Source of the DNA: an uncultured Candidatus Saccharibacteria bacterium
GTDB lineage: Bacteria > Patescibacteriota > Minisyncoccia > Phycocordibacterales > UBA12088
Direction of reading: 5' to 3'
DNA length: 61,811 nt
NCBI GenBank assembly: GCA_964383505.1
Contig: CAYLHB010000002.1
Span: 1-61,811, forward strand
Position numbers and translations under genes: made by a program. The notes beneath the pieces are model-generated. The model saw only the letters and a program-made list of their open reading frames with translations. It did not search any database and was not told where the DNA came from. This document shows positions 13,343 to 35,146 of the stretch, piece after piece (within the stretch, counting starts at the first letter, position 1; each line of letters opens with the position of its first letter).

Positions 13343-13367
13343 AAGGGGCGACTAGGTCGCCCCTTTC
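13343..13367 (-). terminator. Intrinsic terminator of the nucleotide operon
   Basis: Minus strand has GAAAGGGGCGAC-CTA-GTCGCCCCTTTTTTC overlapping the kinase-like gene stop. Confidence 0.7.
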
Positions 13368-14002
13368 AGGAACTTCGATTGCAGGATTCTCCACCCTGCT
13401 TCGATAGTATCATCGGCATCCATTGCTGAAGTATCGATAATATCGACAGCAGGAAAAAAACGACGAGTAGTCTCAAGCAATTTTCGATCATGTCTCATCA
13501 CGAACTCGGGGTCAGTGAAGGACATAAAGTCGCCAGGTGTGTTTGAACCTGGATGCTTGGCTTCTCGTTCTTGCACCCTCACCTTGCGCACATCGATACT
13601 GGCAGTGAGATAAATCACACTACCGAACCGTGGATGTGCCTCGAAGAGGGCGTCTGCAAGCTCGGGAATTATCGGAGTCTCTCGCATGAGATTGTACGAA
13701 ATCGTCCGGAGCCAGCAACTATCCTGCAAATGAACAACGCCTTCTTCGGGCGGTTTGAACAAGGTGGTGTCGTACAAATGCGAAGCCAGAAACAGCGCAC
13801 CGGTTTCCAGCATGGTGGTATGAGCACCTACTGCATACCGCTTTGCTTTTTTTCCCACAGGGTTTTCACCAAGCAGGTTATTCTTGGCACGCATAACTTT
13901 CCATCCTTGCTCGCGAAGCTTGACAGACAAACCTTCACAGAGAGTTGTTTTGCCTGCCAAATCCAGACCCTCAATGAGGATCATTCGATCTTGGTACTGC
14001 AT
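13352..14002 (-). CDS. P-loop (d)NMP kinase-like protein (thymidylate-kinase-like)
   Basis: MILIEGLDLAGKTTL resembles the Tmk P-loop IEGL(D/E)GAGKTT. 216 aa, with RBS TAGGAGGG upstream. Confidence 0.65.
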   Translation of the reverse strand: MQYQDRMILIEGLDLAGKTTLCEGLSVKLREQGWKVMRAKNNLLGENPVGKKAKRYAVGAHTTMLETGALFLASHLYDTTLFKPPEEGVVHLQDSCWLRTISYNLMRETPIIPELADALFEAHPRFGSVIYLTASIDVRKVRVQEREAKHPGSNTPGDFMSFTDPEFVMRHDRKLLETTRRFFPAVDIIDTSAMDADDTIEAGWRILQSKFLKGAT

Positions 14003-14089: not shown

Positions 14090-15451
14090 GAGTCTGTAAA
14101 ATATTTTGTGTAAATGGATTATCCACCGTACTCTAGGAGTACTATCCATTCACACCCATGAACCACACAACCACGAGCGATCAAAGCATCGCTACCCTTC
14201 TTGGCACCGACGAGTTCAAGGAAAAGGCAAAACAGCTTCGCACCCTCTCGGACGTCACCGCGTTCGCCAAGGAGCTCATAGCTCCAACACTCCAGAAGAT
14301 GCTTGAAGCGGAACTCGACGAGCACTTGGGATACAAGAAGCACGAAGTAGTCGGTCGAGGTACCGGCAACTCACGAAACGGCCACAGTCAAAAGAAGCTC
14401 AAAACCTCGTTCGGTACCGCAGAGCTTGCGGTACCCCGCGACCGCAATAGCACCTTCGAGCCGGTCGTCGTGAAGCGGTACGAGACCGTGGAGAGCGACG
14501 TTGAGGAGCGCATAATCTCGATGTACGCCAAAGGATTGACGACTCGCGACATCGCTACCCACATGCACGACATTTATGGTATCGACGTATCGAGTACCAT
14601 GATTTCAACAATCACCGACAAGGTACTCCCCCTGGTCTCCGAGTGGCAGCATCGACCCCTTGCATCTTGCTACGCACTCGTGTCCCTCGACGGTATCTAC
14701 TTCAAAGTGAGAGATAGTGGCAAGATTGTGAACCGTACCGCGTACATTGTTTTGGGCACCACCCTGGAAGGTGTGCGGGATATCCTGGGTATTTGGGTTG
14801 GGGAGAGCGAGGGTGCAAAGTTTTGGATGCACGTCCTCACCGAGATCAAGAACCGTGGAGTGGATGATATCCTGATTGCATCCATAGACGGACTCACGGG
14901 GTTCACGGACGCGATTCGTGCCGTATTCCCTGAAACTGACGTACAGCAGTGCATTGTCCACCAAGTGCGGAATACCATGAAGTATGTGCCCCACAAACAC
15001 AAGAAAGCGTTCGTGAGCGACCTTCGCTCAATCTACACCGCACCAACCGAGGGAGCTGGGCTCAATGAACTCGAACGGGTGAAGGATGCGTGGCCACAGT
15101 ACGCTGTATACCTTAAGAGCTGGGAGACCAAGTGGGGTGAGCTCTCCGCCTTCTACAAGTATCCGCCCGAAATACGGAAGATCATGTACACCACAAACGG
15201 TATCGAAAGCCTGAACCGCCAGTTCCGGAAGGTCACCAAAACGACGAGTATTTTCCCGCACGAGGAGTCACTTATGAAACTGCTCTGGCTTGCGCAGCGG
15301 GATATTACCCGACACTGGACTATGCAGGTCCGTGACTGGGGCACAATCGTGAGCGCGCTTGCGGTTTTGTATCCAGAGCGGGTGAAGCTTGATTAACGTG
15401 ACGCGCGCGTATGATTATCAACCCCGTTTACACAAAAGTACTTGCACACTC
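14090..15451 (+). mobile_element. IS256-family insertion sequence (1362 bp) with 8-bp target-site duplication
   Basis: Terminal inverted repeats GAGTCTGTAAAATATTTTGTGTAAATGG (left) and GAGTGTGCAAGTACTTTTGTGTAAACGG (right, reverse complement) match at 21/28 positions. It is flanked by TCCATATC at 14082-14089 and 15452-15459. Confidence 0.9.
14158..15396 (+). CDS. IS256-family (mutator-type) transposase
   Basis: 412 aa. LDEHLGYKKHE, GNSRNGHSQKKLKTSFG..L.VPRDRNSTFEP and C-terminal NGIESLNRQFRKVTK are typical of IS256 transposases. Confidence 0.9.
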   Translation: MNHTTTSDQSIATLLGTDEFKEKAKQLRTLSDVTAFAKELIAPTLQKMLEAELDEHLGYKKHEVVGRGTGNSRNGHSQKKLKTSFGTAELAVPRDRNSTFEPVVVKRYETVESDVEERIISMYAKGLTTRDIATHMHDIYGIDVSSTMISTITDKVLPLVSEWQHRPLASCYALVSLDGIYFKVRDSGKIVNRTAYIVLGTTLEGVRDILGIWVGESEGAKFWMHVLTEIKNRGVDDILIASIDGLTGFTDAIRAVFPETDVQQCIVHQVRNTMKYVPHKHKKAFVSDLRSIYTAPTEGAGLNELERVKDAWPQYAVYLKSWETKWGELSAFYKYPPEIRKIMYTTNGIESLNRQFRKVTKTTSIFPHEESLMKLLWLAQRDITRHWTMQVRDWGTIVSALAVLYPERVKLD

Positions 15452-16074
15452 TCCATATCCCCTATCCCATTTAGCCTGAGTTGTTCAGATGAGACGACTA
15501 GGTTGAAAGAAAATTCTTTTAATGCCGCTTCAGGTTTAATTTCGAGATACGAATCGTCTATCCACCATTTCACTTTAGGGAGCCTGAATCGATCAAGAGC
15601 GTCTGCGGCTCTTAAATATTTAGACAATGGCCTCGTATCCTTTAAGATCAGAAGTATCTGGTTCAAAAGCGGATGTTGAGCGAAATGTTCCAAAAGCCAA
15701 GTGATTGCTCTATCCTCGTGACCTTCGTCGCCTTTGTCATCCATACGCTGTGTGTCATGAACAGAACAGGCTATTAATAGAGCTTCCCTATCTCTGTCAT
15801 TAATCAATCCTCTAGTCAGAAGGGTGGCATAAACCATTACTCTCACTGTGTGCGCAATTCCATGAATAGACGACACGATCTTAGGATTAACATACCAGTC
15901 TGGTTTCGGTGATAAATCCTGAATCAAAGAAACCTCTCCGGCAGTTAAATAATAGTTGGTATGAAGCATCCGATATTCAGGTTTATTCTCTTTAATTCTA
16001 TCAAGAGTCTCTTGATCCATATTCTGAATATCAGGTTGTAACCTTTCTTGAGCTAATGACCAGAGACTTGTCAT
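15418..16074 (-). CDS. HD-domain phosphohydrolase-like protein, native C-terminus displaced by the IS
   Basis: HGIAHTVRV ... CSVHDTQRMDD gives an H...HD pattern. The last 10 codons (SVQVLLCKRG) are read from the IS terminal repeat. Confidence 0.6.
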   Translation of the reverse strand: MTSLWSLAQERLQPDIQNMDQETLDRIKENKPEYRMLHTNYYLTAGEVSLIQDLSPKPDWYVNPKIVSSIHGIAHTVRVMVYATLLTRGLINDRDREALLIACSVHDTQRMDDKGDEGHEDRAITWLLEHFAQHPLLNQILLILKDTRPLSKYLRAADALDRFRLPKVKWWIDDSYLEIKPEAALKEFSFNLVVSSEQLRLNGIGDMESVQVLLCKRG

Positions 16075-16652
16075 AATGATTTTAATTCATACAAATCCTT
16101 ACTGTACAAGATAAGTGAACCGACTTGATGAACATATGAACCTGCACTTACCCCGAGTTTAGATCCTACATATTTTTGCAAAGCAATCCCAAAACACACA
16201 TCTACTGGCAGTAGTTTTAGTAATTCATTTGAGCGCATGTGAACCACCGTAAACAGTTTGTCACTATTAATGTAAAAATGAATGCCAACCAAACAAGGAA
16301 CTTCGCCAGAGGCTCCAAAAATATAATTATTATCCCAAAGACTTAGATATGCCTTTTTACTATTCGGGTCATTCTGTAAACACTCAATGATACTTGAAAT
16401 TTCATTCTGCTTAATGATTTGATTGTAGTGCGATGTTTCAATATTAAAAACATCATCCTTTTCAGCATGAGAAAACGCTAACCCATCATATAAAATAGGG
16501 TTTTGAAAAGACTCAGGATGCAATATCTCAAAGTGTGCTGACTCTTGAAATATATGTTTACCTTGAGGATTATTTTCGCCTTTTAAATGCTCTTGGACTT
16601 GCTTAATACATGCAAGGTAAAGCTCATCAACTGATTCTGCTTTTATATTCAT
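16071..16652 (-). CDS. Minimal thymidylate-synthase-fold protein (193 aa)
   Basis: It aligns by eye to the ThyA core: LQNDPNSKKAYLSLW (LKNDPDSRR..SAW), VPCLVGIHFY (APCHAFFQFY, catalytic Cys), and HMRSNELLKLLPVDV (YQRSCDVFLGLPFNI). It lacks the ThyA LLWFL folate helix, and GGDTHLY is replaced by VGSLILY. Confidence 0.65.
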   Translation of the reverse strand: MNIKAESVDELYLACIKQVQEHLKGENNPQGKHIFQESAHFEILHPESFQNPILYDGLAFSHAEKDDVFNIETSHYNQIIKQNEISSIIECLQNDPNSKKAYLSLWDNNYIFGASGEVPCLVGIHFYINSDKLFTVVHMRSNELLKLLPVDVCFGIALQKYVGSKLGVSAGSYVHQVGSLILYSKDLYELKSL

Positions 16653-16658
16653 ATAATC

Positions 16659-17765
16659 CTATTTTACACGCAACACAGACTGAGCATTAGGTATTAAGAG
16701 TGGTACAATTTTTACGTCAACAGTATCGCCCACATCAACAACTCCGTTTATAAACGTCGCCCTATAGACATCTACTTCGTTATTAAACATAATTCCCATC
16801 TCACCCTTTGGGATTGTATCGTACTGGAGTAAAACTACACCTTCTTTATCACTCAACATAGAATCCACACCTATTTGCTCGATACCACTACGTAAATCTG
16901 CAGGGGAGTTTTTCAACATTAATCGACCTAATATTGCGTTTGGTTTATATTTCAAATCACTTAAATAGAATCGAATTCGAGCACACATAAACAAAGTAAA
17001 GTCATCAGAATTAAAAGTAGACATTATCTGACGTTGTTCTCTCAAATTAGATATGTGAATGGTCGTATCAGTAACAAAATGTGTAGTACTGAATGAAGTT
17101 TTTAGCTTTGGGGTAACGTCGAATAAGTAATTTTTAACCGCTTTTGCATACACTTCACCTTTCACCGCATAATCTAGCGATACTTTTGAATCCTGTTTTA
17201 TATAGAGGTATTCGTTTAGGCTCTCAAAATAAACATGCTTCAGTGCTGAAAACTTTGTAAAAAAGGTAACTATCTCGTTTAGGAAAAGGTCTCGCTTAAG
17301 GTCTATGAGGCTATCAATATCAGATAATGCTTGTCTATATAAATTCAAAACTTCTGGGGTACTTTCCGTGTCAGTATAGTATTCGCTCTCAAAGATATAA
17401 TTTATCTTTCCTTGGATTAATGAATTTCTGTACTGCATTTCTGACATTTCAAAAACCAAACACTCAACCTTGTTGGTGTTTGATGATTGAGGTATTTCCA
17501 CGTCAAAAATATATTGCCCTAGGTTATGTACACGGCCATCTGAATGCACAGGAGTAACGTATACGACACCGAACAAACCGCCTCCACTGACGTTTATTCT
17601 TCCAGATTCCAAAATGGATTTTATATTCGGAGAGAAGTGTACAAATCTAAATGTATTATCAGAATTTTTCCAACTTAATTCACTATCATTAAAACCCTTA
17701 CTTTTAAGCTCATCCAATAAGTATTTATTCCAACCTTCGCGAGATGTAAGTTTGTCATAATTCAT
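16659..17765 (-). CDS. Hypothetical protein (368 aa); weak H-Y-E ADP-ribosyltransferase-like N-terminal motif pattern
   Basis: FVHFSPNIKSILESGRI ... GGGLFGVVYVTP ... YIFDVEIP resembles the H-x-(S/T) / aromatic-Y / E arrangement of DarT/Tpt1-type folds. This is motif-level only. Confidence 0.5.
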   Translation of the reverse strand: MNYDKLTSREGWNKYLLDELKSKGFNDSELSWKNSDNTFRFVHFSPNIKSILESGRINVSGGGLFGVVYVTPVHSDGRVHNLGQYIFDVEIPQSSNTNKVECLVFEMSEMQYRNSLIQGKINYIFESEYYTDTESTPEVLNLYRQALSDIDSLIDLKRDLFLNEIVTFFTKFSALKHVYFESLNEYLYIKQDSKVSLDYAVKGEVYAKAVKNYLFDVTPKLKTSFSTTHFVTDTTIHISNLREQRQIMSTFNSDDFTLFMCARIRFYLSDLKYKPNAILGRLMLKNSPADLRSGIEQIGVDSMLSDKEGVVLLQYDTIPKGEMGIMFNNEVDVYRATFINGVVDVGDTVDVKIVPLLIPNAQSVLRVK

Positions 17766-17768
17766 AAA

Positions 17769-19208
17769 CTATATTTCCTCTGTCACAATTCTCTTCCCGA
17801 ACCAGCTATTTTTTGCAGCCAATGATCTGTATATTCCTGAGAAAACAACAGCTGTACGATGATGATCCAAGAAATTTGAACGCTGGTTCTCTGGTTCAAT
17901 ATCCTTATCAATATAATCAAAAAATTCTTTAATACAGATACGTCGAGCCTCCTCCTGATGTCCACGAGAGTACCCCTCAAGTTCAAAGCTCATTAAGTCC
18001 CGCACGTTGATTATTTCTACTGGTTTCCATTCAGGAAAAAGTTTATTATTTCTAAAAATAATAATTTCTAAGTGACGCTCTCCCCCTATTTCAAAGTGAT
18101 CGCTATTTTCTTCTAAAATCTCCTTTGACTGATAAGAATTAACAAAAATTGACTGGAATGGACCCTGCTCAATTACATGCTGTTCTTGTCGTACACGACC
18201 GTTTCCTTTGTACAAATCTCTCCCTTCAGCAGTCGCCCAATCTCTTTGACCGTATCCAGTATGGGCCAAGTTAAGGGTACCAAGAGTAATAACCTGCCCA
18301 TCTCGCTTGAATGTAATGTTTCCAGCTACATCAATTTCGCCAAAAGAGCGCATCAAACTCTTATACTCATTTCCATACTTAAAGTACTTGTCAGAATCTT
18401 TAAAAAGACGTTTATGATCGTCAATACTAAGTTGAGCGATAAAATCGGCGGGTCTACTGCTCTGACCATATATTTCTACACTATCAACTGCTTTATCTCC
18501 TTTATGTGTGAGATTGGTAAATTCACACAAAACATCAACCGAGTGATACCCTGAATGAGAAAGTTTTCCATAACCAGAATTATACGGATGATAGTCCTGT
18601 TCGATGATTTCATCTGGAAATCTCCACTGACCATCACAGTGGAGTGAAGACATTAGCGTAACAGGACAGTTCGTTTTGGAAAAAATCTCTTTTATTGCAT
18701 TCCTCGCAACATCATACGCAGTATGAAATCGTCTTTGAGCTAATATTGTGAAAACTACATTTTTGCGCTTCAAGACTTGCTGATATTTATCTTCGATAAG
18801 TCTGTACTCCTCAAGATTTCGCTTCGCTATCTTGAGTGAATTAGCAATTTTTGCAGCAGTTGAAATTGGCTTATCGAGTAGGATATGCAACTCCTTATCC
18901 AATGCCCACATTGAATACTCAAAGTGAGAAAGTGGCTCGGTGGCAATTAAAACAACACCTACTCCGTGTCTCTGCACAATTTCATCAAGCAATTTTCTCC
19001 AAACCTTACTGTCTTTCTTTTGCTCATTAGATAAAAAATATAACTCTGGAGAGACATTATGATCGCCAACATATTTGGTGATCAGTTCCCTTTCCTGCTC
19101 CACGTCAACAACCGCTACCAACTGAGCTGTGTTGGACAGCTCTTTTAAGATTGGTACGTGGATTCTACGAGCATGATAGCCCAATCCAATAAGTAAAACT
19201 TTATGCAT
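17769..19208 (-). CDS. Gfo/Idh/MocA-like NAD(P)-dependent oxidoreductase with a long divergent C-terminal domain
   Basis: N-terminal Rossmann fold KVLLIGLGYHARRIHVPIL ... VVLIATEPLSHFEYSMWALDKELHILLDKPIS (an EKP-like motif read as DKP). Confidence 0.6.
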   Translation of the reverse strand: MHKVLLIGLGYHARRIHVPILKELSNTAQLVAVVDVEQERELITKYVGDHNVSPELYFLSNEQKKDSKVWRKLLDEIVQRHGVGVVLIATEPLSHFEYSMWALDKELHILLDKPISTAAKIANSLKIAKRNLEEYRLIEDKYQQVLKRKNVVFTILAQRRFHTAYDVARNAIKEIFSKTNCPVTLMSSLHCDGQWRFPDEIIEQDYHPYNSGYGKLSHSGYHSVDVLCEFTNLTHKGDKAVDSVEIYGQSSRPADFIAQLSIDDHKRLFKDSDKYFKYGNEYKSLMRSFGEIDVAGNITFKRDGQVITLGTLNLAHTGYGQRDWATAEGRDLYKGNGRVRQEQHVIEQGPFQSIFVNSYQSKEILEENSDHFEIGGERHLEIIIFRNNKLFPEWKPVEIINVRDLMSFELEGYSRGHQEEARRICIKEFFDYIDKDIEPENQRSNFLDHHRTAVVFSGIYRSLAAKNSWFGKRIVTEEI

Positions 19209-19626
19209 TTAAGTGTTTTATAATCTTACTGGCCGCTTTAACATTATCCTCCTTTTCAAGTGTCTTAAACAACATATCTTTGTCGCACCATCGCAAATCA
19301 TCATGCTCGTCCGGTGCTAGTGTTACTTCAACACCAGTTTTAACTTCAACTGCATATACAAACTCTCGAATCTTTGTCTCACCTTTCATCCATTCAAAAT
19401 CATAAAACGGGCCTTCAATTTTAATGATATTTTCTGAATCAATACTGCACTCCTCTTTAATTTCGCGAGTTATTGTGCCAATCAAACTCTCGTTATCATG
19501 AACAGTACCAGTAACTGTCTGCCAAAAACCGCCATCGTCAGGAACTCTCTTGATACAAAGAAACTCAACACCTGCATCCGTCAATTGATATACAAAGGCA
19601 TTTACTCGAATAGGTAACTTGGTCAT
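19201..19626 (-). CDS. Nudix hydrolase, NudB-like
   Basis: Nudix box GTVHDNESLIGTITREIKEECSI. GFWQTVTG matches NudB DFWQSVTG. The stop overlaps the downstream start by 8 nt. Confidence 0.8.
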   Translation of the reverse strand: MTKLPIRVNAFVYQLTDAGVEFLCIKRVPDDGGFWQTVTGTVHDNESLIGTITREIKEECSIDSENIIKIEGPFYDFEWMKGETKIREFVYAVEVKTGVEVTLAPDEHDDLRWCDKDMLFKTLEKEDNVKAASKIIKHLNA

Positions 19627-19730: not shown

Positions 19731-20177
19731 ATGCAATACCTTACGTGGGAAGATTTAAACAGCAGTCAGAAGTCACTTCTTGAGACTGCCAAAGCCAATG
19801 CTGAAAAATCAGTAAGCCAAAATGGTCACAAGGTGGGCTGTTCGATCTGTGGCGAGAACGAGACATACAACGGATCAACAATATCTCATCCTAGAATTAT
19901 TGGTTCAACATGTGCTGAACGCATGGCTATCGATCACCTTCTTATCGATAATGATAAGCCAAAACTGTGCGCAGTCGTAGGTAAGCTTAATCGTGAGAAC
20001 TGGACAAAAGATAATCTTTGTACACCATGTGGACTTTGTCTTGAGATGTTTTGGGAATTACAAATGAAAACTGGCATTGATGATATAGACTTTCTTTGTG
20101 CAAATTGGGATTTAGATAGAATCCTGAGTATTAAACTTTCTAAACTATTCCCTCGCTTTGAAGCTGTGAAGCGTTAG
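19731..20177 (+). CDS. Cytidine/deoxycytidine deaminase-like protein (CDA fold)
   Basis: Zinc motifs CAERMAI and TPCGLCLEMF (C-A-E ... P-C-x-x-C). 148 aa, as in homotetrameric CDAs. Confidence 0.7.
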   Translation: MQYLTWEDLNSSQKSLLETAKANAEKSVSQNGHKVGCSICGENETYNGSTISHPRIIGSTCAERMAIDHLLIDNDKPKLCAVVGKLNRENWTKDNLCTPCGLCLEMFWELQMKTGIDDIDFLCANWDLDRILSIKLSKLFPRFEAVKR

Positions 20178-20203: not shown

Positions 20204-21535
20204 CTACATACGATTCTTCTTACGTTCCCGAGTAGCCTTCACCTTCTCTCGATGTAAACGTCGAGCCTCGTCCTTCTCCTTTCGCTCCGCTTCACGCTGT
20301 GCCATTTCTTCGGGCGGTATCACTCGAAGATAATCCATGATCTTGTATCCCTTGAGGATTTCGTGCGGATCGCCGAAGTGATACCACGGGTGCATCTGGT
20401 TCCACTCCTTACCGTCTTTCATCTCCTTAACCATATGCGACTCAAGAAGTTTCTTTGGAGGCAGAAAGTCCTTGTTGTCCTTGATTAGAAACAACTGGGC
20501 ATGCACACCCTCGCCATAGTGCGAGACTGTTCGTGCCTTTAGGATACCTTCCTTCACCCACTTATTGAGTGTCTGACCTTTCACATTGAAGTAGTGCTCA
20601 AAGTCATACTTTCGATACCAACTATCTTTGTTCTTGGCGAGTGATGCGGAAATCTCACCTTTATCAATCGCTTTCTGACAAACCAGACACTTCACGCCCC
20701 ATTTGTCGTACCAGTTATCACCCTCTGGCGTACTGCCGTGACAGATGGCACACGTATACCCAGCGCCCTCACGATGGAATCCTTTTGGTTCTTTTTCGAG
20801 TCGTTCAACAAGTAGCTTTTCCTTTTCCTTCCATTCATCCATAAACCTACCTGCTTGCTCCATACCCCATTTCATCTCTGAAAACTTGCGACCCTCCTCT
20901 TCGGAGAGACAGTATCGACCACGATCTTCGGCAAAGTGTTCGTCGTATTCATCCTCGTGCTTTGGCCAAACCATCTCATCTCTTTCTATATACTTACACT
21001 TCGCACAGGTGTATGTAGTAACAAGTTTTGTACCATCGTCATCGGCAGTATGTTTGGTTGGTGAGTCACATTGTTTACAGACGTGCTGTTTGATCCGCCA
21101 CTCTTCACCCGTATTGAAAAATGCCCGACGAGGCAGGCATTTGTTTGGACAGTCATACATGAAGAGAACACGTTCTGGTTTGTCTCCGTCGTGCCAGAGT
21201 TGCTTGAAAGTTGGAGTGTGGCGATTGCGACAGGTAAGGCATCGGATGTCTTCGGGAGCTTGAGCATTTTCGTAGAGATCATCAAGCGTCTGGTCGCTCG
21301 CCATCCATTCCTGGATTGTTTTATCCCGATTCAGATAGCGTTCACCCCTTTCGAAGGTAAGTATGAGATTATGCGCCCACTCTCTGATGGCTCGGTCTTG
21401 CTCCTTGCTCATCTTCTTATTACGAGATGGTGAATCATCTTTGACATACCGTTTTTCCATACCACGACAACGCTCAACTGTATATTTGTCGTACAGGTCG
21501 ATATAGTATTGACGGTCTTTAAGATGTTTGCTCAC
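20204..21535 (-). CDS. Multi-zinc-ribbon protein with a possible C-terminal HTH (443 aa)
   Basis: Repeated CxxC pairs (CLTCRN, CKQCDS, CAKCKY, CAICHG, CLVCQK). The segment KGQTLNKWVKEGILKA resembles an excisionase/MerR-type HTH. It has a Lys/Arg/Glu-rich tail. Confidence 0.55.
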   Translation of the reverse strand: MSKHLKDRQYYIDLYDKYTVERCRGMEKRYVKDDSPSRNKKMSKEQDRAIREWAHNLILTFERGERYLNRDKTIQEWMASDQTLDDLYENAQAPEDIRCLTCRNRHTPTFKQLWHDGDKPERVLFMYDCPNKCLPRRAFFNTGEEWRIKQHVCKQCDSPTKHTADDDGTKLVTTYTCAKCKYIERDEMVWPKHEDEYDEHFAEDRGRYCLSEEEGRKFSEMKWGMEQAGRFMDEWKEKEKLLVERLEKEPKGFHREGAGYTCAICHGSTPEGDNWYDKWGVKCLVCQKAIDKGEISASLAKNKDSWYRKYDFEHYFNVKGQTLNKWVKEGILKARTVSHYGEGVHAQLFLIKDNKDFLPPKKLLESHMVKEMKDGKEWNQMHPWYHFGDPHEILKGYKIMDYLRVIPPEEMAQREAERKEKDEARRLHREKVKATRERKKNRM

Positions 21536-21584
21536 CCCTATATTCTATTCCTATTTTAAGTGATTTTTAAATAGCATTTTGTGT

Positions 21585-22472
21585 TTAATCTTTGATCCAA
21601 ATGGGTACGACAGCATTACCCAGCACAATACCGTGAATGAGTGCATCTCTGTTATCAAAGGAATTAGTACCGACGTAACTCAACAAGAAAGCCTTCATGA
21701 GTGCTTCAACACGATGATAAAAAGTGAATTCTTCGGTACGGGTACTGAACACCTTGCATTCCCAAACCTTCCCATGCATCACCCAGTTACGAACATCCTT
21801 TATGTCTGTGAGAAAAGAATCTATTGGCTTAGTGTTAGTGTATTGTGCTTCAAAACCGAACTTTTGAACCGCGTACTTTAAGTAGTCGATATAGTGCAGA
21901 TTCCCCGGAACATTCTTGGGGTTCTTTATGTTGCTATCTAAACAATAAAGACTTCGGCAAAACAGCTCTATTGGCTGAAGATACCAAACATCTTTCAAAT
22001 CGCTATATGGTGTAAAAAGCTCCGCTTCGAACAATAGACCGAGACTTTTAAAAAAGATGCGACGTTCGTTATTAGAAAAACTATCCAGTTTTTTAATCGT
22101 GCTGTCTAAATATGCCTCAACTTCCTTTACGCGTAGAAGAGGCCAATCATATGTCTTTCCGCCGATCCGAGCAAACACCTCACTACCTCCTTCCTTATCG
22201 TCGTATGGAAAGATGTGTCGAGACTGAAAAAGTGCAAGCAAGGCACAGTAATCCCATATCTTCGGCTGCGATGGATAAAAATGTGACTTAGTGAGATCAA
22301 GTCCCGGTTTTTCACATACTATTGTTGAACGAAAATTTACGTTTCTTGAAAATCTGTTTTCCTTTTCATATTCCTTGTATCCATTTTCAAAGTCCACAAC
22401 GGGTTCAAATCGATAATGTGTTGTATCGATAACATTTGGGAGGTGGACGTTGTAGAGATAGAGTTGTCTCAT
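21585..22472 (-). CDS. HEPN-motif protein (Abi-like), 295 aa
   Basis: ATG at 22472 (MRQLYLY). The C-terminal DIKDVRNWVMHG carries an R-N-x3-H (Rx4H) HEPN signature. The upstream part of the 358-aa ORF overlaps the preceding gene. Confidence 0.55.
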   Translation of the reverse strand: MRQLYLYNVHLPNVIDTTHYRFEPVVDFENGYKEYEKENRFSRNVNFRSTIVCEKPGLDLTKSHFYPSQPKIWDYCALLALFQSRHIFPYDDKEGGSEVFARIGGKTYDWPLLRVKEVEAYLDSTIKKLDSFSNNERRIFFKSLGLLFEAELFTPYSDLKDVWYLQPIELFCRSLYCLDSNIKNPKNVPGNLHYIDYLKYAVQKFGFEAQYTNTKPIDSFLTDIKDVRNWVMHGKVWECKVFSTRTEEFTFYHRVEALMKAFLLSYVGTNSFDNRDALIHGIVLGNAVVPIWIKD

Positions 22473-22494
22473 AATCTTCAATATACAAACAGCC

Positions 22495-23322
22495 TTAAGA
22501 AGTGCTATTGGTCGATTCAGATTCGAGTCTAAATAGATGGTTGAGTAACAAAAACTCAGATAGGTACTCCTGTGAATCACTTTGACGCTCTTTATGTGCA
22601 CGCGGATTTCGATACGCGGAATATGCATTGATAATAATGTTTGCCCTTGCCTTCTGCTCACCTTCGCTAATTCCGTTCCAGCTTAACCTTGAGTTTTGTT
22701 TGAGAAATGCTTCGGTGAATAATTTCGCTCCAATCTCGTAGCTACCAGTCCTTAGTCGGACAGCATCTTCAAATCTCCTATATCCATCCATAAGGTTGGT
22801 GTCAGGGTGCTGCCAAAATGAAACAGCAAGATCAATAATCCGTGGATCGATAATCGCATACGGAATAACTGGCCGAAATTCCTTCCACAAATCTCCTACT
22901 CGAGCCGCATCAAAATGTTGCGTTTCAATGTATTCGTATATGCGAAGCGGCCTTACTGGATTAAGCGCCTTTATCTCTTGAACATCAGCAGTTGTTAATG
23001 CCGAATGATCAAGTCGCTCTAGCATAGAATTATTTATTTCAAACTCGTCAATGTTGATACCGTGCTCCATTAGCAAGGCAAGCGCGTACGAAAATTTGCG
23101 TGGACCCTCGCCGGTGTAGCCGCTCGCAAAACCTGATTTAACTGCAATAAGTTCTATCGGTTCTACGGTGATAAGTAGCCCGTGCCTTCCTCTAGATGTA
23201 AGGATATGTACTTTGGATAGCTGATCGTTGTACTGCAATAGACGTACTACAGCATCAAGACATGTTTGTGTTATGCCTGCCTCACCCCAATATTGAATTC
23301 TTGCTAGTTTGGCATCACGCAT
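22495..23322 (-). CDS. TIGR02391 (Ymh-type HEPN) family protein with an unknown N-terminal domain
   Basis: The C-terminus GAKLFTEAF...EGEQKARANIIINAYSAYRNPRAHKE...EYLSEFLLLNHLFRL matches my recollection of the TIGR02391 pattern, with an RNPRAH Rx4H motif. Confidence 0.65.
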   Translation of the reverse strand: MRDAKLARIQYWGEAGITQTCLDAVVRLLQYNDQLSKVHILTSRGRHGLLITVEPIELIAVKSGFASGYTGEGPRKFSYALALLMEHGINIDEFEINNSMLERLDHSALTTADVQEIKALNPVRPLRIYEYIETQHFDAARVGDLWKEFRPVIPYAIIDPRIIDLAVSFWQHPDTNLMDGYRRFEDAVRLRTGSYEIGAKLFTEAFLKQNSRLSWNGISEGEQKARANIIINAYSAYRNPRAHKERQSDSQEYLSEFLLLNHLFRLESESTNSTS

Positions 23323-23329
23323 AGTTTGT

Positions 23330-26300
23330 TTACACAGGCAAGTACTCCCAGTACACCCGCACCGTCTCTTGGTATATCGAGTCTATCAGCCGTTCAGTTT
23401 GTACAAGCTCAGTGAAACCCTTCTGAAGCAAGAGCAGACGTACGTTCTGACGAATCCGCGCTTTGATCGTCTCGTTGTTTGTCCAATCAATCGCTAAGTC
23501 ACGACGAATACGCCTCGTCAGTTCTTTAACAAAATCCTTAATATCGATACCTGCTTTTTTGAGATCCGGGTCAGTCACTAGGGTGTCATAAAAGACCACC
23601 TCCTCTTCAGAAAGCCCTAGCTCCCTACTCTCCTCGTCGAGCTTCTGTATATCATCGGCAATAGCAAGCAGGTGCTTGATGATCTCTGCGGAACTGATAA
23701 CGTTGTTCTCGTACTTCTCGATAAGGTCGGTTAGGAGGGTGAGCATGGTTTCGTATCGAGCTTTGTTGGTACGAGAGCGAACCTTAATCTCTTTGTCGAG
23801 CATCTTCCGCACCGTATCAATAGCAAGATTTTGATACTTCGATTTATTGATCTCCTCAGCAAACCGCGCGTCAAATATCGAGATGATCTTTTTCTCCTCG
23901 CCTTCTTTGGTAAAGAGGTCAATCACGCCCTCGGCCTGCACCGCATCTTGCACTAAGCTTCGGATAGCACTCTCGGTCGCTTCAGGAAAGATGATATGGG
24001 GAATCACCGTCTGCTTGTGTAAGGCATCGCGAATAGACTGGAAAAACTGCACATCCGTCGCAATCTCCATCGCTTCAGAGCCTGGCATCACAAGCGCGTG
24101 AAGGTTGGAAAGCTTTGACACCGCACCCATGTACGCCATTTTACGATCATCCGACAGATGGCCTTGCTCCGAGACAACCTCATTCATTGCGGATTGGAAC
24201 AACTCTACCAGCTCGATCCCCTTTTTCTGCCTCCACCCGGAAAAGTCGATAGCGGCAAAATACTGCAACACGTCCCCGTGAAGTTTCTTCATTGCGCGTA
24301 TCACCTCATCAAGCGGTATCATCGCCTCTTTCTGCACATCCGCATCATAGATTGCAAGTGCCTTCTTGAGATTTTCCGCAACACCTATGTAGTCCACAAT
24401 CAAACCGCCCGGCTTATCTTTGTAGATACGATTGACCCGTGCGATCGCTTGCATGAGTCCATGATTCTTGAGTGGCTTATCGAGGTACATGGTATGCAAA
24501 CACGGCACATCAAACCCGGTGAGCCACATATCGCACACGATGGCGATGCGCAAAGGGTCGCTCGCTTTCTTGAAGCGCTTTTCAAGCTTCTTCACGTCAT
24601 GTTCTGGCTGCAACTGCCCCGCAAAATCATCCATGCCGGATATGATCACCGCGCATTCGGGTGCCCCAGGTATCTTCTGTATCGCTTGGTATACCGCGAC
24701 GGCAATAGCGCGGCTCATGGTCACCACCATCGCCTTTCCTTCTATGGGTCGATTGGTAAAGTGGGAGACTATATCTTTTGATATTGTTTCGATACGATCC
24801 GGTGTACCCACCATCTGTTCGAGTACCGCCCATTCTTTTTGTACCTTTATTCGCTCATCGATAACGATCTCACCCAATATCTCATCGAGCTTGCTATCAA
24901 CAAACTGGTCTGCAAGGTGAAGTGGAATAAGTCGCCCCTCGTAGTAGATAGGCACGGTTGCATTATCCTTGACCGCTTGGCCTATCTTGTATGAACTCAC
25001 CACATCGCCAAACACGCGCATGGTATCACGACTATGCTGTGATATTGGTGTTCCGGTCACCCCCAAAAAGCTCGCATTCGGCAAGGCCTGACGTACGTTA
25101 CCCGCAAGCATGCTGTATTGGGTACGATGTGCTTCGTCCGTAAGGACAATGATGTTTTCCCGATCGGTAAGGGCCGCGTTCGCATCTGGATCGTCTTGGA
25201 ATTTCTGAATGGTGGTGAAGATAAGTTCGGATCCCAGGTGTGAGAGTCGGTCTTTCAAGTCTCTAATGCTTGAAGCGCGCTTCGCGAGCGTGCCGTATCC
25301 CGTACGACTAAATGTTTTGAATAGTTGATCGTCGAGATCTTCGCGGTCAGTGAGGAACACATACGCCGGACTTTTAAGTTCATGGATCCGCTTCGTCTTG
25401 TTCACGTAGAACACCATCGATAATGATTTGCCCGACCCCTGCGTATGCCAAAAAACGCCAATCTTCCGCTCTTGTTCACCTAGGACCGATCGTACGGTAC
25501 TGTCGATGGTCTTATTCACCCCATAGTACTGGTGGTACAACGCCATTTTCTTGGTGTAGGTCACCGCATCACCGTCGCCGTCTGCCTCAAACACGGTGAA
25601 GTTTTGTATCACATCAAGCAAACGGGCTTTATTGAAAAGACCATTTGCGAGCACTTCGAGCTCTGTCGCGCTCTTTGGCGCATCACTCTCCGACTCGATC
25701 CCCTTCCAGGTACCATACCGCTCCCACGAGGAGGATATGGTGCCATGACGGGCATCGGTAAGGTCACTGAGGCAAACAACCTGGTTGTACAGAAAAAGCT
25801 TTGGAATTTCCTTTTTGTAGTACTCCATGTCACGGTACGCCTGCCCGATGGTCGCCTGCTCACGCACGGGGTTTTTGAGTTCAAATACCGCAAGCGGAAT
25901 ACCATTCACAAATACCACACCATCAAGACGGCAAACATTCTCGATACCTTGGACTGTAAATTGATTGACGATCAAGAACTCATTCGCATCTACATTTGTG
26001 AAATCAATCAACTTCACAACTTCGGTCTTTTCCTCACCATTCTCTCGCCACGTCTTCTTCACTCCCTCGGTAAGGAAAGTAAATATTTCCTTATTGCCGA
26101 GGACAATATCGGCATTGTGGTAGCTCGCGATATCAGCAACCACTTGTTCTGCCTGTTCAGCAGGAAGCTGAGGATTAAATCGATGAACGGAAGTGAGGAG
26201 GCGATTCTTTAAGACCACCTCATTAAAAAGCGCCCGCTCCGCACTGGGTTGTTTTGGGGCAATGTCTGGTCCGTAGGCATACTCATAGCCCTCGCCTTGA

Positions 26301-26353
26301 AGCCATTCTATGAGCGACTGCTCAGTTAAATTGTTTTCGTTGAGAGGATTCAT
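23330..26353 (-). CDS. hsdR: Type I restriction enzyme R subunit
   Basis: 1007 aa with helicase motifs (HTQGSGKS, TDEAHRTQY, GVTGTP). The start overlaps the hsdM-S stop by 4 nt. Confidence 0.9.
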   Translation of the reverse strand: MNPLNENNLTEQSLIEWLQGEGYEYAYGPDIAPKQPSAERALFNEVVLKNRLLTSVHRFNPQLPAEQAEQVVADIASYHNADIVLGNKEIFTFLTEGVKKTWRENGEEKTEVVKLIDFTNVDANEFLIVNQFTVQGIENVCRLDGVVFVNGIPLAVFELKNPVREQATIGQAYRDMEYYKKEIPKLFLYNQVVCLSDLTDARHGTISSSWERYGTWKGIESESDAPKSATELEVLANGLFNKARLLDVIQNFTVFEADGDGDAVTYTKKMALYHQYYGVNKTIDSTVRSVLGEQERKIGVFWHTQGSGKSLSMVFYVNKTKRIHELKSPAYVFLTDREDLDDQLFKTFSRTGYGTLAKRASSIRDLKDRLSHLGSELIFTTIQKFQDDPDANAALTDRENIIVLTDEAHRTQYSMLAGNVRQALPNASFLGVTGTPISQHSRDTMRVFGDVVSSYKIGQAVKDNATVPIYYEGRLIPLHLADQFVDSKLDEILGEIVIDERIKVQKEWAVLEQMVGTPDRIETISKDIVSHFTNRPIEGKAMVVTMSRAIAVAVYQAIQKIPGAPECAVIISGMDDFAGQLQPEHDVKKLEKRFKKASDPLRIAIVCDMWLTGFDVPCLHTMYLDKPLKNHGLMQAIARVNRIYKDKPGGLIVDYIGVAENLKKALAIYDADVQKEAMIPLDEVIRAMKKLHGDVLQYFAAIDFSGWRQKKGIELVELFQSAMNEVVSEQGHLSDDRKMAYMGAVSKLSNLHALVMPGSEAMEIATDVQFFQSIRDALHKQTVIPHIIFPEATESAIRSLVQDAVQAEGVIDLFTKEGEEKKIISIFDARFAEEINKSKYQNLAIDTVRKMLDKEIKVRSRTNKARYETMLTLLTDLIEKYENNVISSAEIIKHLLAIADDIQKLDEESRELGLSEEEVVFYDTLVTDPDLKKAGIDIKDFVKELTRRIRRDLAIDWTNNETIKARIRQNVRLLLLQKGFTELVQTERLIDSIYQETVRVYWEYLPV

Positions 26354-28854
26354 GTGATTTTTTCCGAGGATTTGCGAGCCTCCAAAAGATTCCCGTATTC
26401 CTGTTGAGTAGCGAGAATAAACTCAAAGATTGGTTGAACCAATTCGTCAAACTCCTCGATTAGTGAGGCGGGAGGATTAACAACCTGAATATTCTTAAGT
26501 GTCGCCGTTGTAATGGCGTCAAAAACTCCACCTACAGCAATCTTCTGCAGACTCTCTATTAATCTTTGGACAAGAAGGTACACATAGAAGCTGGAAATCC
26601 CGTCTTTTCCCTTGAGAGCGTAGCATGATTGGTTCATTGCCATGGGTACACCCGCAAGTGCAAGTTTTCCTACTGTGCCACGTGCAGTGAGAAAAACAGT
26701 ATTCTTCGGATATAGTGAGCTGTTGCAGTTCTCTAAGCCTTCCTGTGTTATATATTTCTCAGTTTTTAAAGAATAGAATGAACCGTTTGCATCGCCGGGT
26801 GTAAAAAATGGAATAGCGCCATTCCAATATTCGTTAACGTCTGTTTTTGGGGTACCCCCACCGAGAACATCCACATTATCGGTCAGAGCACCCTTAGACC
26901 AACCTTCTGGAATTTGACCCATTCCACTGTCGACAAGTTTGATATTCGAATTAGATGGATAATTGAATTTTACAAACCACTCAGCAAAAATTCGCTTGCA
27001 CAAATCTTCTAATATTTCGCGTGAAGAGAAGTCCAGGTCACTCCAATCGTGATGAGGATAGAATTTACTTAGTTTTGAAGAAATTTCTCTGTTAAGAGCT
27101 TGGTTGGTCTTCGTTTGCTTTTTTAGAAAACGAGAAGTTATTGCGAGATTTTCATCAAACGACACCTTTTCATTCTCAGACTCCACGAGGCCCACATACA
27201 GTCCGGGGTTGAGATAATATTTGTTACTCCTAATTTGCTCAAGATTTACAGACTTACAAAAACCAGGAATGTCGTTATATTTTTCAGCATCTGACTCGCC
27301 ACGCCAAGCACGAACAACGTTTGCTATTTGCTTAATATGATCCGGGTTTAAGACAACCTGTTTTCGAGAAATCTGCTCAAATATGTTCCTTGCGTCGACG
27401 AAGAGTGTCTCACCTGGGCGTTTCCGAAAACGATCTCCAGATTTATTTTTTGCCAGAAACCAAAGGGAGACTGGCAAAGGTACATTGTAAAAAAGTTTAG
27501 GGGGACAAGAAATAATAACGTCCACCAAATCCGCTTCAACTAATTTTTGGCGAAGTTCACCCTCCTTGCCTGCAACAGCTGTTGCACCATTGGGCATAAC
27601 GAACCCAGCATACCCATTTGGTGCGAGATGGTGAGTAAAATGCTGTACCCACATAAAGTTTGCGTTACTACTTTGTGGCACGCCAAGAGTGATACGAGGA
27701 TCGCTATCTGACAGTTTGGATGGATCCCACTCTGCATTGAAAGGAGGATTAGCGATAACGAAATCAGCTTGCAGATGAGGGAACTTATCTTCGTAGTAGG
27801 TATTGCCAAGCTCAATCTTTCCAGAGAGTCCGCGAATCGCAAGGTTCATCTTTGCGAGTCGAAGAGTGGTCTGATTACTCTCCTGACCATTTATAGCCAG
27901 TTTGGAAGAATCTTGCCCATGATTGCGAAGATACTCACCCATGGATACAAACATTCCTCCACTTCCACAGGCAGGGTCTAATACGCGGGCGTTTTCGTAA
28001 GGTTCAAGAATTTCAACAAGAAGCTTGACGATTGACCGAGGGGTAAAAAATTCACCTCCACGCTTTCCTTCGGAAGAAGCAAACTGGCCGAGGAAGTATT
28101 CATAAATACGACCAAGAATGTCTTTCTCCCGGTCGAAATCATGGTCGAACGAAATACGGGAGAAAATGTTTACAAGCTCACCAATCACCGCATGGTCAAG
28201 AGTCGTGCGTGTATATATCTTTGGCAGAACGCCCTCCAGCTCTGCGTGGTTGTCGTCCTCGATATACTCCATAGCTTTGTCGAGCACTTGTCCAATGTCC
28301 GACTGCATCGTCTTGGTCTGTAAGTACTCCCAACGTGACTTTGCAGGGACATAGAACACGCCTACGCTTTTATAGAAATCCTTAGTCTCAAGTATCTGTG
28401 CACGTGCTTTGTCGTCAGCTACGTAAAAATCCTCATTATTTGGATTACGCGTGAACGTTTCGAGCTCTTCACGCCGCTTAACGAACGCATCAGAAATGTA
28501 CTTCAAAAATAGAAGCCCAAGCACTATATTTTTATACTCCGACACGTCAATATTGCCCCTAAGCTTGTCGGCTGCCGCCCATAGCTCCTTTTCAAAACTT
28601 AGGTCGTGGTGCACGCCTTTCCCTACCACGCTTTCTCGTATTTTGCCTTTCTCTTTCTCAATGCGCCCTTGCAACTCCGCGGATAAGGAGGACTTTGGTA
28701 TAAGGTAGGTGGGTTTTGAGGGATCGCCGACATTTTCAGCCTCAATCTCACCTTTTTTGATCTTCTGGTGTACTGCGACACGAGATATCCCCAGCATCTT
28801 GGCAAGCTGGGTGGGCGTTATGAATTCTGTTTTGTTTATTGGCATGATTGCCAT
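26350..28854 (-). CDS. hsdM: Fusion: N-terminal HTH + type I N6-adenine methyltransferase (HsdM) + single-TRD half HsdS
   Basis: HTH ITPTQLAKMLGISRVAVHQKIKKGEI. HsdM N-domain LWAAADKLRGN. Motif I LDPACGSGGMF and motif IV NPPFN. The C-terminal ~250 aa look like one HsdS target-recognition domain plus a conserved helix (LGGGTPKT...FFTPGD...ARGTVGK...NQSCYAL). Confidence 0.8.
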   Translation of the reverse strand: MAIMPINKTEFITPTQLAKMLGISRVAVHQKIKKGEIEAENVGDPSKPTYLIPKSSLSAELQGRIEKEKGKIRESVVGKGVHHDLSFEKELWAAADKLRGNIDVSEYKNIVLGLLFLKYISDAFVKRREELETFTRNPNNEDFYVADDKARAQILETKDFYKSVGVFYVPAKSRWEYLQTKTMQSDIGQVLDKAMEYIEDDNHAELEGVLPKIYTRTTLDHAVIGELVNIFSRISFDHDFDREKDILGRIYEYFLGQFASSEGKRGGEFFTPRSIVKLLVEILEPYENARVLDPACGSGGMFVSMGEYLRNHGQDSSKLAINGQESNQTTLRLAKMNLAIRGLSGKIELGNTYYEDKFPHLQADFVIANPPFNAEWDPSKLSDSDPRITLGVPQSSNANFMWVQHFTHHLAPNGYAGFVMPNGATAVAGKEGELRQKLVEADLVDVIISCPPKLFYNVPLPVSLWFLAKNKSGDRFRKRPGETLFVDARNIFEQISRKQVVLNPDHIKQIANVVRAWRGESDAEKYNDIPGFCKSVNLEQIRSNKYYLNPGLYVGLVESENEKVSFDENLAITSRFLKKQTKTNQALNREISSKLSKFYPHHDWSDLDFSSREILEDLCKRIFAEWFVKFNYPSNSNIKLVDSGMGQIPEGWSKGALTDNVDVLGGGTPKTDVNEYWNGAIPFFTPGDANGSFYSLKTEKYITQEGLENCNSSLYPKNTVFLTARGTVGKLALAGVPMAMNQSCYALKGKDGISSFYVYLLVQRLIESLQKIAVGGVFDAITTATLKNIQVVNPPASLIEEFDELVQPIFEFILATQQEYGNLLEARKSSEKIT

Positions 28855-29105
28855 CCTAGCACAATGTGTTGCTAAATGCAACTTAACATGTGTAAAGTTG
28901 CGTGGCACCCTGTGTCCTGTATACTACAAGAGGTTCCAACGCAAAACGACGACCCTCTCGCAAAAAAGGAAGTCGTCGCTATGCGGTAGCCTCTGCAGTC
29001 GGGGTGAACGTTGGTGCGTTCTGACTGCCGAGTACAAAGGGTCTGTACCCCTGTTCCTACAGCCTACACACCCCACTGCACATTACAAGCACCAGCATCT
29101 AATAA

Positions 29106-29381
29106 GTGCCTATGGTACTCATGCTGACCTACGACCTAAACAAGGTCAAAGACTACAGGAAACTGTACGCGGCTATCGAGCAGCTGGGCGAGACCAAGCG
29201 CGACCCCAACCTAGACTCTGTCTGGTTCATCGCGACGTCGCTCAGCCCAAACCAAGCGTGCGACCACATCCGTTCGGCAACAGATCGAGATGATCACCAC
29301 TTCATCTGTCGACTCAGCTCTGGTAACCACCAGGGGTGGATGAGCAAGGAAGTGTGGGACTGGATCAATAGCCATCTATGA
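29106..29381 (+). CDS. Hypothetical small protein (91 aa)
   Basis: ORF MPMVLMLTYDLNKVKDYRKLYAAIEQLG..., followed by a strong hairpin. It has only a vague Cas2/VapD-like beta-alpha start. An alternative ATG lies at 29112. Confidence 0.4.
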   Translation: MPMVLMLTYDLNKVKDYRKLYAAIEQLGETKRDPNLDSVWFIATSLSPNQACDHIRSATDRDDHHFICRLSSGNHQGWMSKEVWDWINSHL

Positions 29382-29388
29382 TGATGGT

Positions 29389-29418
29389 AGACAAGCCGAC
29401 CGCAAGGTCGGCTTGTCT
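29389..29418. terminator. Bidirectional hairpin terminator between convergent genes
   Basis: AGACAAGCCGACC-GCAA-GGTCGGCTTGTCT, a perfect 13-bp stem. Confidence 0.7.
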
Positions 29419-29502
29419 GTACGGTGCTATGAGTTGAGTGCCTGTCGTATCCTGCCACGAACCTCAGGGACCGTTGAGAGGATGCAGTGGAGGCCAGTGA
29501 GA

Positions 29503-35077: not shown

Positions 35078-35146
35078 CGGTTACCAACTTAAGGAGGTTC
35101 GGGCACACTAGACTGTTGGGGCGTGTTGCGTCATTCATTGTGGTGT

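Follow-up and report, generated by a model that had tools for sequence, protein, structure and literature searches.

In the window analysed here, a 61,811-nucleotide stretch of DNA from an uncultured Candidatus Saccharibacteria bacterium (assembly GCA_964383505.1, contig CAYLHB010000002.1), we identified a real gene under purifying selection which encodes a 193-residue member of the thymidylate synthase (TS) superfamily, a relationship far beyond chance. This TS-like protein is not a dTMP synthase. Analysis of its sequence, its predicted structure and its conserved operon suggests, with about even confidence, that it is a miniaturised and catalytically competent enzyme on the deoxycytidine monophosphate (dCMP) hydroxymethylase/hydroxylase side of the superfamily, modifying C5 of dCMP or CMP, most likely with a folate-borne one-carbon unit.

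16071 to 16652, minus strand: short TS-superfamily gene of 193 residues (open reading frame call, Pfam, structural model and alignments)

A short thymidylate-synthase-fold protein with a cytosine-type active site

Pfam PF00303 (Thymidylat_synt) was matched with an E-value of 4.1e-11 (43 bits against a cut-off of 24.3), residues 79-191 of the protein covering positions 106-219 of the 266 in the profile, and profile-profile comparison (hhalign) with TS gave a probability of 99.95% and an E-value of 1.6e-38. The best PDB sequence matches were MilA (E 1.1e-9) followed by classical thymidylate synthases, and the top profile match was AfhB (E 3.4e-20). An AlphaFold2 (AF2) model built with 20 homologues as input (pLDDT 91.7, pTM 0.88) matched MilA with a Z-score of 17.7 (181 residues aligned, root-mean-square deviation 3.1), AfhB, the flavin dCMP hydroxylase of phage HY126, with Z 16.3, and classical TS with Z about 14, model residues 9-193 lying on E. 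coli TS 1-219; between 170 and 184 residues were aligned in these matches. Pairwise dN/dS among the orthologues was 0.04-0.27 for pairs with unsaturated dS. Taken together, the Pfam and PDB matches, the confident model, the orthologues and the dN/dS values establish that the gene is real and selected and that its product has a TS fold, and an earlier note on this DNA, which had proposed a minimal TS-fold protein keeping the catalytic cysteine, is borne out by the profile searches. The protein is 71 residues short of the 264 of E. coli ThyA, which agrees with the figure of about 70 given there, and the by-eye alignment from the DPxS motif through P-C and R-S to the final ..LY motif was confirmed. 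Alongside the profile score above cut-off and the TS fold, the protein has the other marks of the superfamily, a cysteine in P-C, R140-S141 and Y183, and its scores against the NCBIfam TS equivalogs were 30-52 bits against cut-offs of 108-405.

The active site was compared with that of E. coli ThyA, whose numbering is used below for positions of the fold. Unchanged are Pro145-Cys146 (P119-C120 in the TS-like protein), Arg166-Ser167 (R140-S141), Ser125 (S98), Tyr209 (Y183) and Trp133 (W106), and replaced are Arg126/Arg127 (K99/K100), Leu143 (E117), His147 (L121), Cys168 (N142), Asp169 (E143), Gly173 (L147), Asn177 (D151) and His207 (I181). C120 is the predicted nucleophile and K99, K100, R140 and S141 the predicted phosphate clamp. 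Among 20 short homologues, down to 24% identity, C120, R140, G171 and Y183 never vary, and E72, H75 and Y76 hardly do.

The earlier note had read an LP..N motif here, overlooking a pointer to cytosine: the protein reads L-P-V-D, with D151 at the position of the Asn177 that gives dTMP synthases their uracil specificity, and this Asp is invariant throughout the operon-linked clade. As Asp at position 177 makes T4 gp42, MilA and BcmA specific for cytosine in place of uracil (PMC5175136; PMC13326640), D151 indicates a cytosine-nucleotide substrate. An acidic residue at 143 accompanies hydroxymethyl or hydroxyl, not methyl, products (PMC13326640); the equivalent of E117 is kept in most orthologues and is Asp in P0014 and Val in P0009, so that the (d)CMP hydroxymethylase combination of Asp177 with an acidic 143 was found throughout save for Val143 in P0009. 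The preference of MilA for ribonucleotides requires Lys at 126 and Ala at 167, and its A176S variant (Lys with Ser) favours dCMP while still accepting CMP (PMC5175136). K99 and S141 form the same pair as in that variant, and dCMP would be a somewhat likelier substrate than CMP. The residue pattern supports an intact nucleotide-side apparatus for attack on a cytosine nucleotide.

The proposed reaction and the reduced cofactor side

What was observed concerns the family and fold, the pattern of residues, the conserved operon, the rarity of the gene and the genome around it; the substrate, the chemistry and the roles in a pathway that follow are inferred from these. If it works as TS, T4 gp42 and MilA do, the protein would act as a homodimer in which the 5'-phosphate of a cytosine mononucleotide would be clamped by K99'/K100', donated across the interface like the Arg126'/Arg127' pair of TS, and by R140, S141 and an N-terminal basic residue, Asp151 would recognise and protonate the cytosine ring, and addition of Cys120 to C6 would make C5 nucleophilic. 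C5 would then gain a non-methyl substituent, likeliest the one-carbon unit of methylene-tetrahydrofolate, released as hydroxymethyl. We place such a folate one-carbon transfer at even confidence or slightly below it. The pocket for methylene-tetrahydrofolate would be much reduced, and a non-folate electrophile is a serious alternative. The step would be the base modification that opens an accessory modified-cytosine pathway.

The host genome (G000; 786 kb, 93% complete) has the TS-like gene as its sole PF00303 gene and encodes ThyX and serine hydroxymethyltransferase (C1:27534-28088 and C1:30220-31359), so that dTMP comes from ThyX and methylene-tetrahydrofolate is available. GTP cyclohydrolase I (FolE), dihydropteroate synthase (DHPS) and dihydrofolate reductase were not found in this 93%-complete genome, and the host appears to be a folate user unable to make or re-reduce folate. 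As no dihydrofolate reductase was found, a reaction of the ThyA type, which yields dihydrofolate and drains tetrahydrofolate (THF), would be wasteful; a hydroxymethylase-type reaction would return THF, unlike reductive methylation by ThyA. A tail-less pterin cofactor, at which the NudB-like Nudix protein of the operon might hint, was also considered and set aside because neither FolE nor DHPS was found in the genome and because a pterin without N10 should be unable to hold a methylene bridge.

Several features of the sequence weigh against this reading, the first being that most of the folate crevice is missing. ThyA residues 111-219 align one-to-one with the TS-like protein; residues 66-110, about 45 residues which include Ile79, Trp80, Trp83 and Tyr94, are reduced to about 4, a loss of about 41, and the last 45 residues (220-264) are absent. 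With 14 extra N-terminal and hairpin residues counted in, a difference of -72 is expected and -71 is observed. Upstream of the deleted segment P52-I-L corresponds to ThyA P43-L-V, and helix 67-79 (I-E72-T-S-H75-Y76-N) resembles ThyA helix B (H-E58-L-L-W61-F62-L) in pattern, length and register; it likewise resembles T4 gp42 R-E60-L-E-W63-Y64, with E72-x-x-H75-Y76 on E60-x-x-W63-Y64 in a MAFFT alignment. The LLWFL helix, which the earlier note had reported missing, is thus probably present and the segment after it is what has been lost, although the alignments disagree. The N-terminal mapping was based on MAFFT, hhalign and secondary-structure register, which conflict, two automatic profile alignments placing Y76 on Tyr94/Tyr96 and leaving helix B unpaired. 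The helix-B mapping is favoured, not proven, and E72 is probably the equivalent of the catalytic Glu58; the mapping is ambiguous in that Y76 may instead be the equivalent of Tyr94. In either mapping a single 13-residue helix occupies the place of two helices of TS, those of Glu58 and Tyr94, and the Trp80/Trp83 helix has no counterpart.

The THF contacts of T4 dCMP hydroxymethylase, as listed from its structure with dCMP and THF (PMC6400193), are affected accordingly. Ile81, Trp82, Val85, Ser94 and Tyr96 are deleted in the TS-like protein, Phe174 is replaced by K146 and Arg177 by P149, Asp171 corresponds to E143 (Glu, Asn or Asp among the orthologues) and Asp145 to E117; Tyr218 (Y183) and Arg220 (K185) stand as retained contact positions. 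Neither the THF-pocket elements of the folate-dependent (d)CMP hydroxymethylases (helix C, Ser94/Tyr96, Asp171, Phe174 and Arg177) nor the folate-site elements of ThyA (Ile79/Trp80/Trp83, Asp169 and the C-terminal lid) are preserved in the protein. Loss of folate-site elements, as the earlier note had claimed, is upheld for the Trp80/Trp83 helix and the altered contacts; the C-terminal tail is also absent, but its loss alone is uninformative and is no evidence against folate use, because T4 dCMP hydroxymethylase binds THF despite having no C-terminal tail (PMC6400193).

A further objection concerns the sugar side. The replacement of GGDTHLY by VGSLILY, to which the earlier note had drawn attention, is real, and only one half of it is peculiar, since Asp205 is also Ser in MilA and T4 gp42. 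The position of His207, the residue that touches the sugar hydroxyl in TS, T4 gp42 and MilA, is Ile or Val in the TS-like family, and this loss may make sugar recognition unusual, the substrate sugar perhaps not being a plain (deoxy)ribose. The last objection is that the supposedly diagnostic positions 169 and 143 vary between orthologues that share the operon. At 169 most of them have Glu, P0012 and P0016 have Asn, and P0014 has Asp. Folate enzymes invariably carry Asp there and flavin hydroxylases invariably Asn; the family conforms to neither rule, and this misfit is the strongest hint that the cofactor side may work differently.

Precedent for a non-folate cofactor in the TS fold, and so for the different one-carbon donor or chemistry that the earlier note had thought possible, is provided by the flavin-dependent 5-hydroxy-dCMP synthases (PMC13326640; PDB 9iqu/9iqc). 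If the TS-like protein were a flavin- and O2-dependent dCMP 5-hydroxylase of the AfhB or RB69 gp48 type, its 5-hydroxy-(d)CMP would be decorated by the operon enzymes, and we judge this unlikely. AfhB is the top profile match and a close structural match and stops where the TS-like protein stops, Glu at the Leu143 position with Asp at the Asn177 position is common to AfhB-type enzymes, and the cell handles flavin, as ThyX shows. The flavin hydroxylases consistently have Asn at 169, and this diagnostic Asp169-to-Asn change (PMC13326640) is carried by P0012 and P0016, which have the same operon type, but not by the window protein (Glu143 in its own numbering) or most orthologues. The Tyr94-type loop of RB69 gp48 (F-Y-G-P-R) is absent, and the family clusters with other short forms outside the RB69 group in a tree built on a short core alignment. 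Moreover, many bacteria of the candidate phyla radiation (CPR) are anaerobes, which does not favour an O2-dependent enzyme.

The operon, its partner genes and its mobile setting

The TS-like gene lies in an operon whose other genes, with the inserted and divergent reading frames, are as follows.

13352 to 14002, minus strand: 216-residue dTMP-kinase-like P-loop kinase gene, separated from the operon by an insertion sequence
14158 to 15396, plus strand: Mutator/IS256-family transposase open reading frame (E 2.7e-114), between the HD-type and kinase genes
15418 to 16074, minus strand: HD-type phosphohydrolase-like gene, its ATG overlapping the stop codon of the TS-like gene
16659 to 17765, minus strand: gene for a 368-residue protein, weakly ADP-ribosyltransferase-like by matches of its AF2 model
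17769 to 19208, minus strand: gene for a 479-residue Gfo/Idh/MocA-family NAD(P) oxidoreductase (profile matches)
19201 to 19626, minus strand: gene for a 141-residue Nudix hydrolase, first in the operon (closest model NudB, below its cut-off)
19731 to 20177, plus strand: divergent gene for a 148-residue cytidine-deaminase-family protein (CAE and PCxxC zinc motifs)

The Nudix gene overlaps the Gfo/Idh/MocA gene by 8 nt and the gene for the 368-residue protein stops 6 nt before the ATG of the TS-like gene. The ATGA overlap (16071-16074) joins the TGA of the TS-like gene to the ATG of the HD gene, and is not, as the earlier note had it, at the start of the TS-like gene. All sufficiently long loci contain the Nudix (141 residues), Gfo/Idh/MocA (479), 368-374-residue, TS-like, HD-like (216-218) and kinase (216) genes, with the kinase gene closing the operon in every orthologous locus, and the divergent cytidine-deaminase-family gene usually accompanies them. 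The gene set is retained at 42% TS identity (P0012), and P0016, at 29% TS identity, has the same six genes in shuffled order on a 189-kb chromosomal contig. In L024 the downstream operon genes are present with a Nudix gene after the kinase gene. The kinase is far more conserved across loci than the TS-like protein (95/83/72% against 80/59/42% identity), and its gene has a GC content of 0.49 against 0.374 in the remaining operon. A variant operon (L002:3836-7402) has its Nudix gene on the opposite strand, and encodes in addition, adjoining the deaminase, a NIF3/DUF34 protein, a 344-residue protein without assigned function and an inositol-monophosphatase/CysQ-family phosphatase.

The HD-like protein keeps the pattern H..H..HD..D..D..H..D, with H71, H75, H106-D107, D113, D116, H119, D158 and D161 invariant, and scores weakly against Pfam HD. 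About nine residues at its C-terminal end are unlike those of any orthologue and adjoin the IS256-family insertion, which has replaced the original ones; in this genome the operon may have become polar or lost part of its function. PDB sequence searches with the Gfo-like, HD-like and 368-residue proteins gave no match. The 368-residue family was found only with this operon (19 clusters), and its confident AF2 model gave weak matches, almost all to ADP-ribosyltransferase (ART) folds (ParT at Z 4.9, RES toxins, PARP domains and relatives of diphtheria toxin), which span residues 36-341 as N- and C-terminal sheets around a helical insert of about 200 residues. A predicted complex of this protein with the TS-like protein scored 0.00, which speaks neither for nor against binding.

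Roles for the Nudix, TS-like and kinase proteins are proposed because of the parallel with the T4 set of gp56 pyrophosphatase, gp42, gp1 kinase and Cd deaminase: the Nudix protein would convert a nucleoside triphosphate to the monophosphate, the TS-like protein would modify it, the dTMP-kinase-like enzyme would re-phosphorylate the modified product, and the deaminase may detoxify or divert cytosine compounds. The three extra enzymes imply further phosphate or sugar chemistry, in which the HD, Gfo/Idh/MocA and 368-residue proteins would handle phosphate or sugar parts.

These same partners are the source of a further alternative, in which the TS-like protein would have abandoned folate and would turn the Cys-activated C5 on a new electrophile that is neither folate nor flavin. 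The ART-like 368-residue protein might supply a ribosyl donor derived from NAD, or the Gfo/Idh/MocA enzyme might make a keto-sugar or keto-nucleotide. Otherwise the TS-like protein would act on a sugar-altered (3'-deoxy or 3'-phospho) nucleotide; we regard this as distinctly unlikely. It would account for the deleted or unconserved folate contacts, the lost His207 and the strict linkage of the TS-like protein to the operon-only 368-residue family, whose matches are weak yet consistently of the ART fold. The SidE phosphodiesterase domain of Legionella acts after an ART domain, and one HD-like orthologue (L020:8568-9224) weakly matches the SidE phosphodiesterase model (E 0.0024). As leads only, the CysQ-family gene of the L002 variant, together with the loss of His207, fits a 3'-altered sugar, and Cns1 of cordycepin synthesis may belong to the Gfo/Idh/MocA family. 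A trio of oxidoreductase, HD protein and kinase, again a lead only, is shared with the cordycepin proteins Cns1, Cns2 and Cns3 (PMC8869658). Against this alternative, all of the supporting matches fall below significance thresholds. To our knowledge, moreover, no TS-fold enzyme uses an NAD-ribosyl or keto-sugar electrophile. If the alternative were true, CPR mobile elements would use a previously unknown hypermodified cytosine nucleotide, either as an antiviral analogue or to feed DNA modification.

The GC content of the operon is 0.37 compared with about 0.55 in its flanks, and its neighbours in the window include Ymh-HEPN, HsdR, an HsdM-HsdS fusion, an N6/N4 methylase, a terminase and a serine recombinase. 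An unrelated metagenome contig, L030 (1-6456), has the same order of type I restriction-modification genes, helicase, 441-residue protein, deaminase and operon; methylase and recombinase genes lie near the operon in L002 and L024, and in L001 and L025 it lies amid ordinary chromosomal genes. These neighbourhoods indicate a self-contained mobile cassette, often carried in defence-rich integrative elements, and the operon is accessory, not housekeeping. Because it is low-GC cargo often found beside restriction-modification genes, its product is more likely a conflict-related modified nucleotide, either an antiviral analogue or a precursor for DNA modification, than a housekeeping metabolite. PADLOC detected no known defence system, assigning only the Nudix protein to the candidate PDC-S07 along with a weak kinase match, and in the literature on this gene combination we found no paper describing the operon. 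The operon adjoins a 441-443-residue protein without a Pfam match, beyond which lie the type I restriction-modification genes and other neighbours (window 20204-36541).

Distribution and relation to known enzymes

Close relatives of the TS-like protein amount to 10 clusters among 5.8 billion clustered proteins, and among 1.84 billion representatives there were 4 below E 1e-30, the next score being 81 bits. A search of 400 other genomes of the phylum yielded no close homologue (E <= 1e-15) and one of IMG/VR no relative, and the GTDB species genomes gave a single relative, in a Candidatus Kaiserbacteria metagenome-assembled genome. The orthologues are of 193-207 residues, save for two shorter ones (145 and 154 residues); fused or longer forms of the close family were not found, which is weak evidence given the limits of the search. 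In a tree built on a 108-residue core, a short alignment for which deeper support is moderate, the operon-linked proteins formed one clade (support 0.915) with P0016 as sister (0.77), within a clade of 21 short forms of 186-213 residues (0.947) that adjoins the T4 gp42-like and RB69 hydroxylase-like groups. Those members whose source is named belong to Candidatus Kaiserbacteria, Candidatus Roizmanbacteria and a Nanoarchaeota archaeon and are annotated in databases only as hypothetical protein or thymidylate synthase. The family is thus tiny and so far confined to CPR bacteria, the short-form clade spanning CPR bacteria and DPANN archaea.

This conservation bears on the remaining alternatives. 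A non-catalytic nucleotide-binding or regulatory subunit that merely keeps the TS nucleotide pocket would be in keeping with the loss of the cofactor-side elements and the replacement of His147, Asp169 and His207. The earlier note had listed such a role as one option. We consider it very unlikely because Cys120, Arg140 and Tyr183 remain unchanged in homologues of only 24-29% identity, the adjacent Pro and the putative Glu58 are also conserved across very divergent homologues, and purifying selection is strong. A housekeeping role as a minimal dTMP synthase like the short archaeal form (TIGR03283), which is of similar length and is the joint-best NCBIfam match, aligned to the end of the 201-position model, is scarcely credible and was rejected: the equivalog score of 52.3 bits is far too low against the cut-off of 174.55, position 177 is Asp and not Asn, ThyX is already in the genome, and the gene is low-GC, operon-bound and rare in the phylum.

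Of the known enzymes, the CMP 5-hydroxymethylases MilA and BcmA of mildiomycin and bacimethrin synthesis (PDB 5b6d, 5b6e, 5jnh) are the top PDB match in both sequence and structure, and share Asp177, an acidic 143, Lys at Arg126 and a G-S-x-x-x-Y motif with the TS-like protein. Unlike it, MilA is about 330 residues long, has folate-side helices and a five-helix C-terminal extension, and carries Ala167, Asp169 and His207 where the TS-like protein has Ser, Glu and Ile; MilA clusters also include an N-glycosidase, whereas the operon here is without one. The dCMP hydroxymethylase T4 gp42 is alike in Asp177, the acidic 143, Ser167, Tyr209 and the lack of a long C-terminal tail, and its gene set is parallel, with a pyrophosphatase (gp56 dCTPase), the TS-like enzyme, a nucleoside monophosphate kinase (gp1, acting on dNMP) and a deaminase (Cd). 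It differs in its 246 residues and in its THF-binding helix C (Ile81/Trp82/Val85), Ser94/Tyr96, Asp171, Phe174 and Arg177, a set which is wholly lacking or changed here, and the TS-like gene, unlike the T4 set, is carried on bacterial chromosomes or mobile elements and is accompanied by three further enzyme genes.

The flavin 5-hydroxy-dCMP synthases (HY126 AfhB, PDB 9iqu/9iqc; RB69 gp48; DLP3 gp80) share the short TS fold, Glu143, Asp177, the top profile match and the end point. In contrast, they have 217-238 residues, keep the Tyr94-type loop, always carry Asn at position 169, where the TS-like family has Glu, Asn or Asp, and are phage enzymes accompanied by arabinosyl- or glycosyl-transferases. 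Short archaeal TS (TIGR03283, Methanocaldococcus type) is similar in its length of about 200 residues and ends at the same C-terminal point in the profile alignment, but the TS-like protein and its short relatives mostly have Asp177, lie in accessory operons and are far below the cut-off, the short relatives scoring 36-55 bits against 174.55 with none passing. E. coli ThyA (EC 2.1.1.45) has in common with the TS-like protein the fold, the P-C nucleophile, the R-S phosphate motif, the DPxS motif and Tyr209; it is 71 residues longer, has Asn177, Asp169, His147 and His207 in place of Asp, Glu, Leu and Ile, and possesses the Trp80/Trp83 segment and C-terminal lid that are absent here. Unlike ThyA, the TS-like protein is not the cell's source of dTMP.

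The TS fold was long regarded as bound to folate, until the flavin-dependent 5-hydroxy-dCMP synthases (2025-26) showed that it can switch cofactor. The superfamily, its cytosine-specific branch and short forms of it were already known; new are the 193-residue architecture, the signature Lys126/Glu143/Ser167/Glu169/Asp177/Ile207, the occurrence, to date only in CPR bacteria with relatives in DPANN archaea, and the conserved operon. The TS-like family is smaller still than the flavin enzymes, keeping the nucleotide side of the active site and discarding most of the cofactor side. Knowledge of its reaction would show how small the catalytic core of the TS fold can be, might bring to light a new cofactor or electrophile for chemistry at C5 of pyrimidines, and would tell what is made by a nucleotide pathway found in the company of defence genes, a candidate antiviral analogue or a new DNA base modification.

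Two of the short forms have neighbours of a different kind. The short TS-like gene of a Candidatus Roizmanbacteria contig (L028:8001-8615) lies beside genes for a phosphoribosyltransferase, an APH-type kinase, a 933-residue Nudix protein and a HAD phosphatase, and that of P0024 lies beside genes for a CYTH triphosphatase, a P-loop kinase and two proteins without assigned function.

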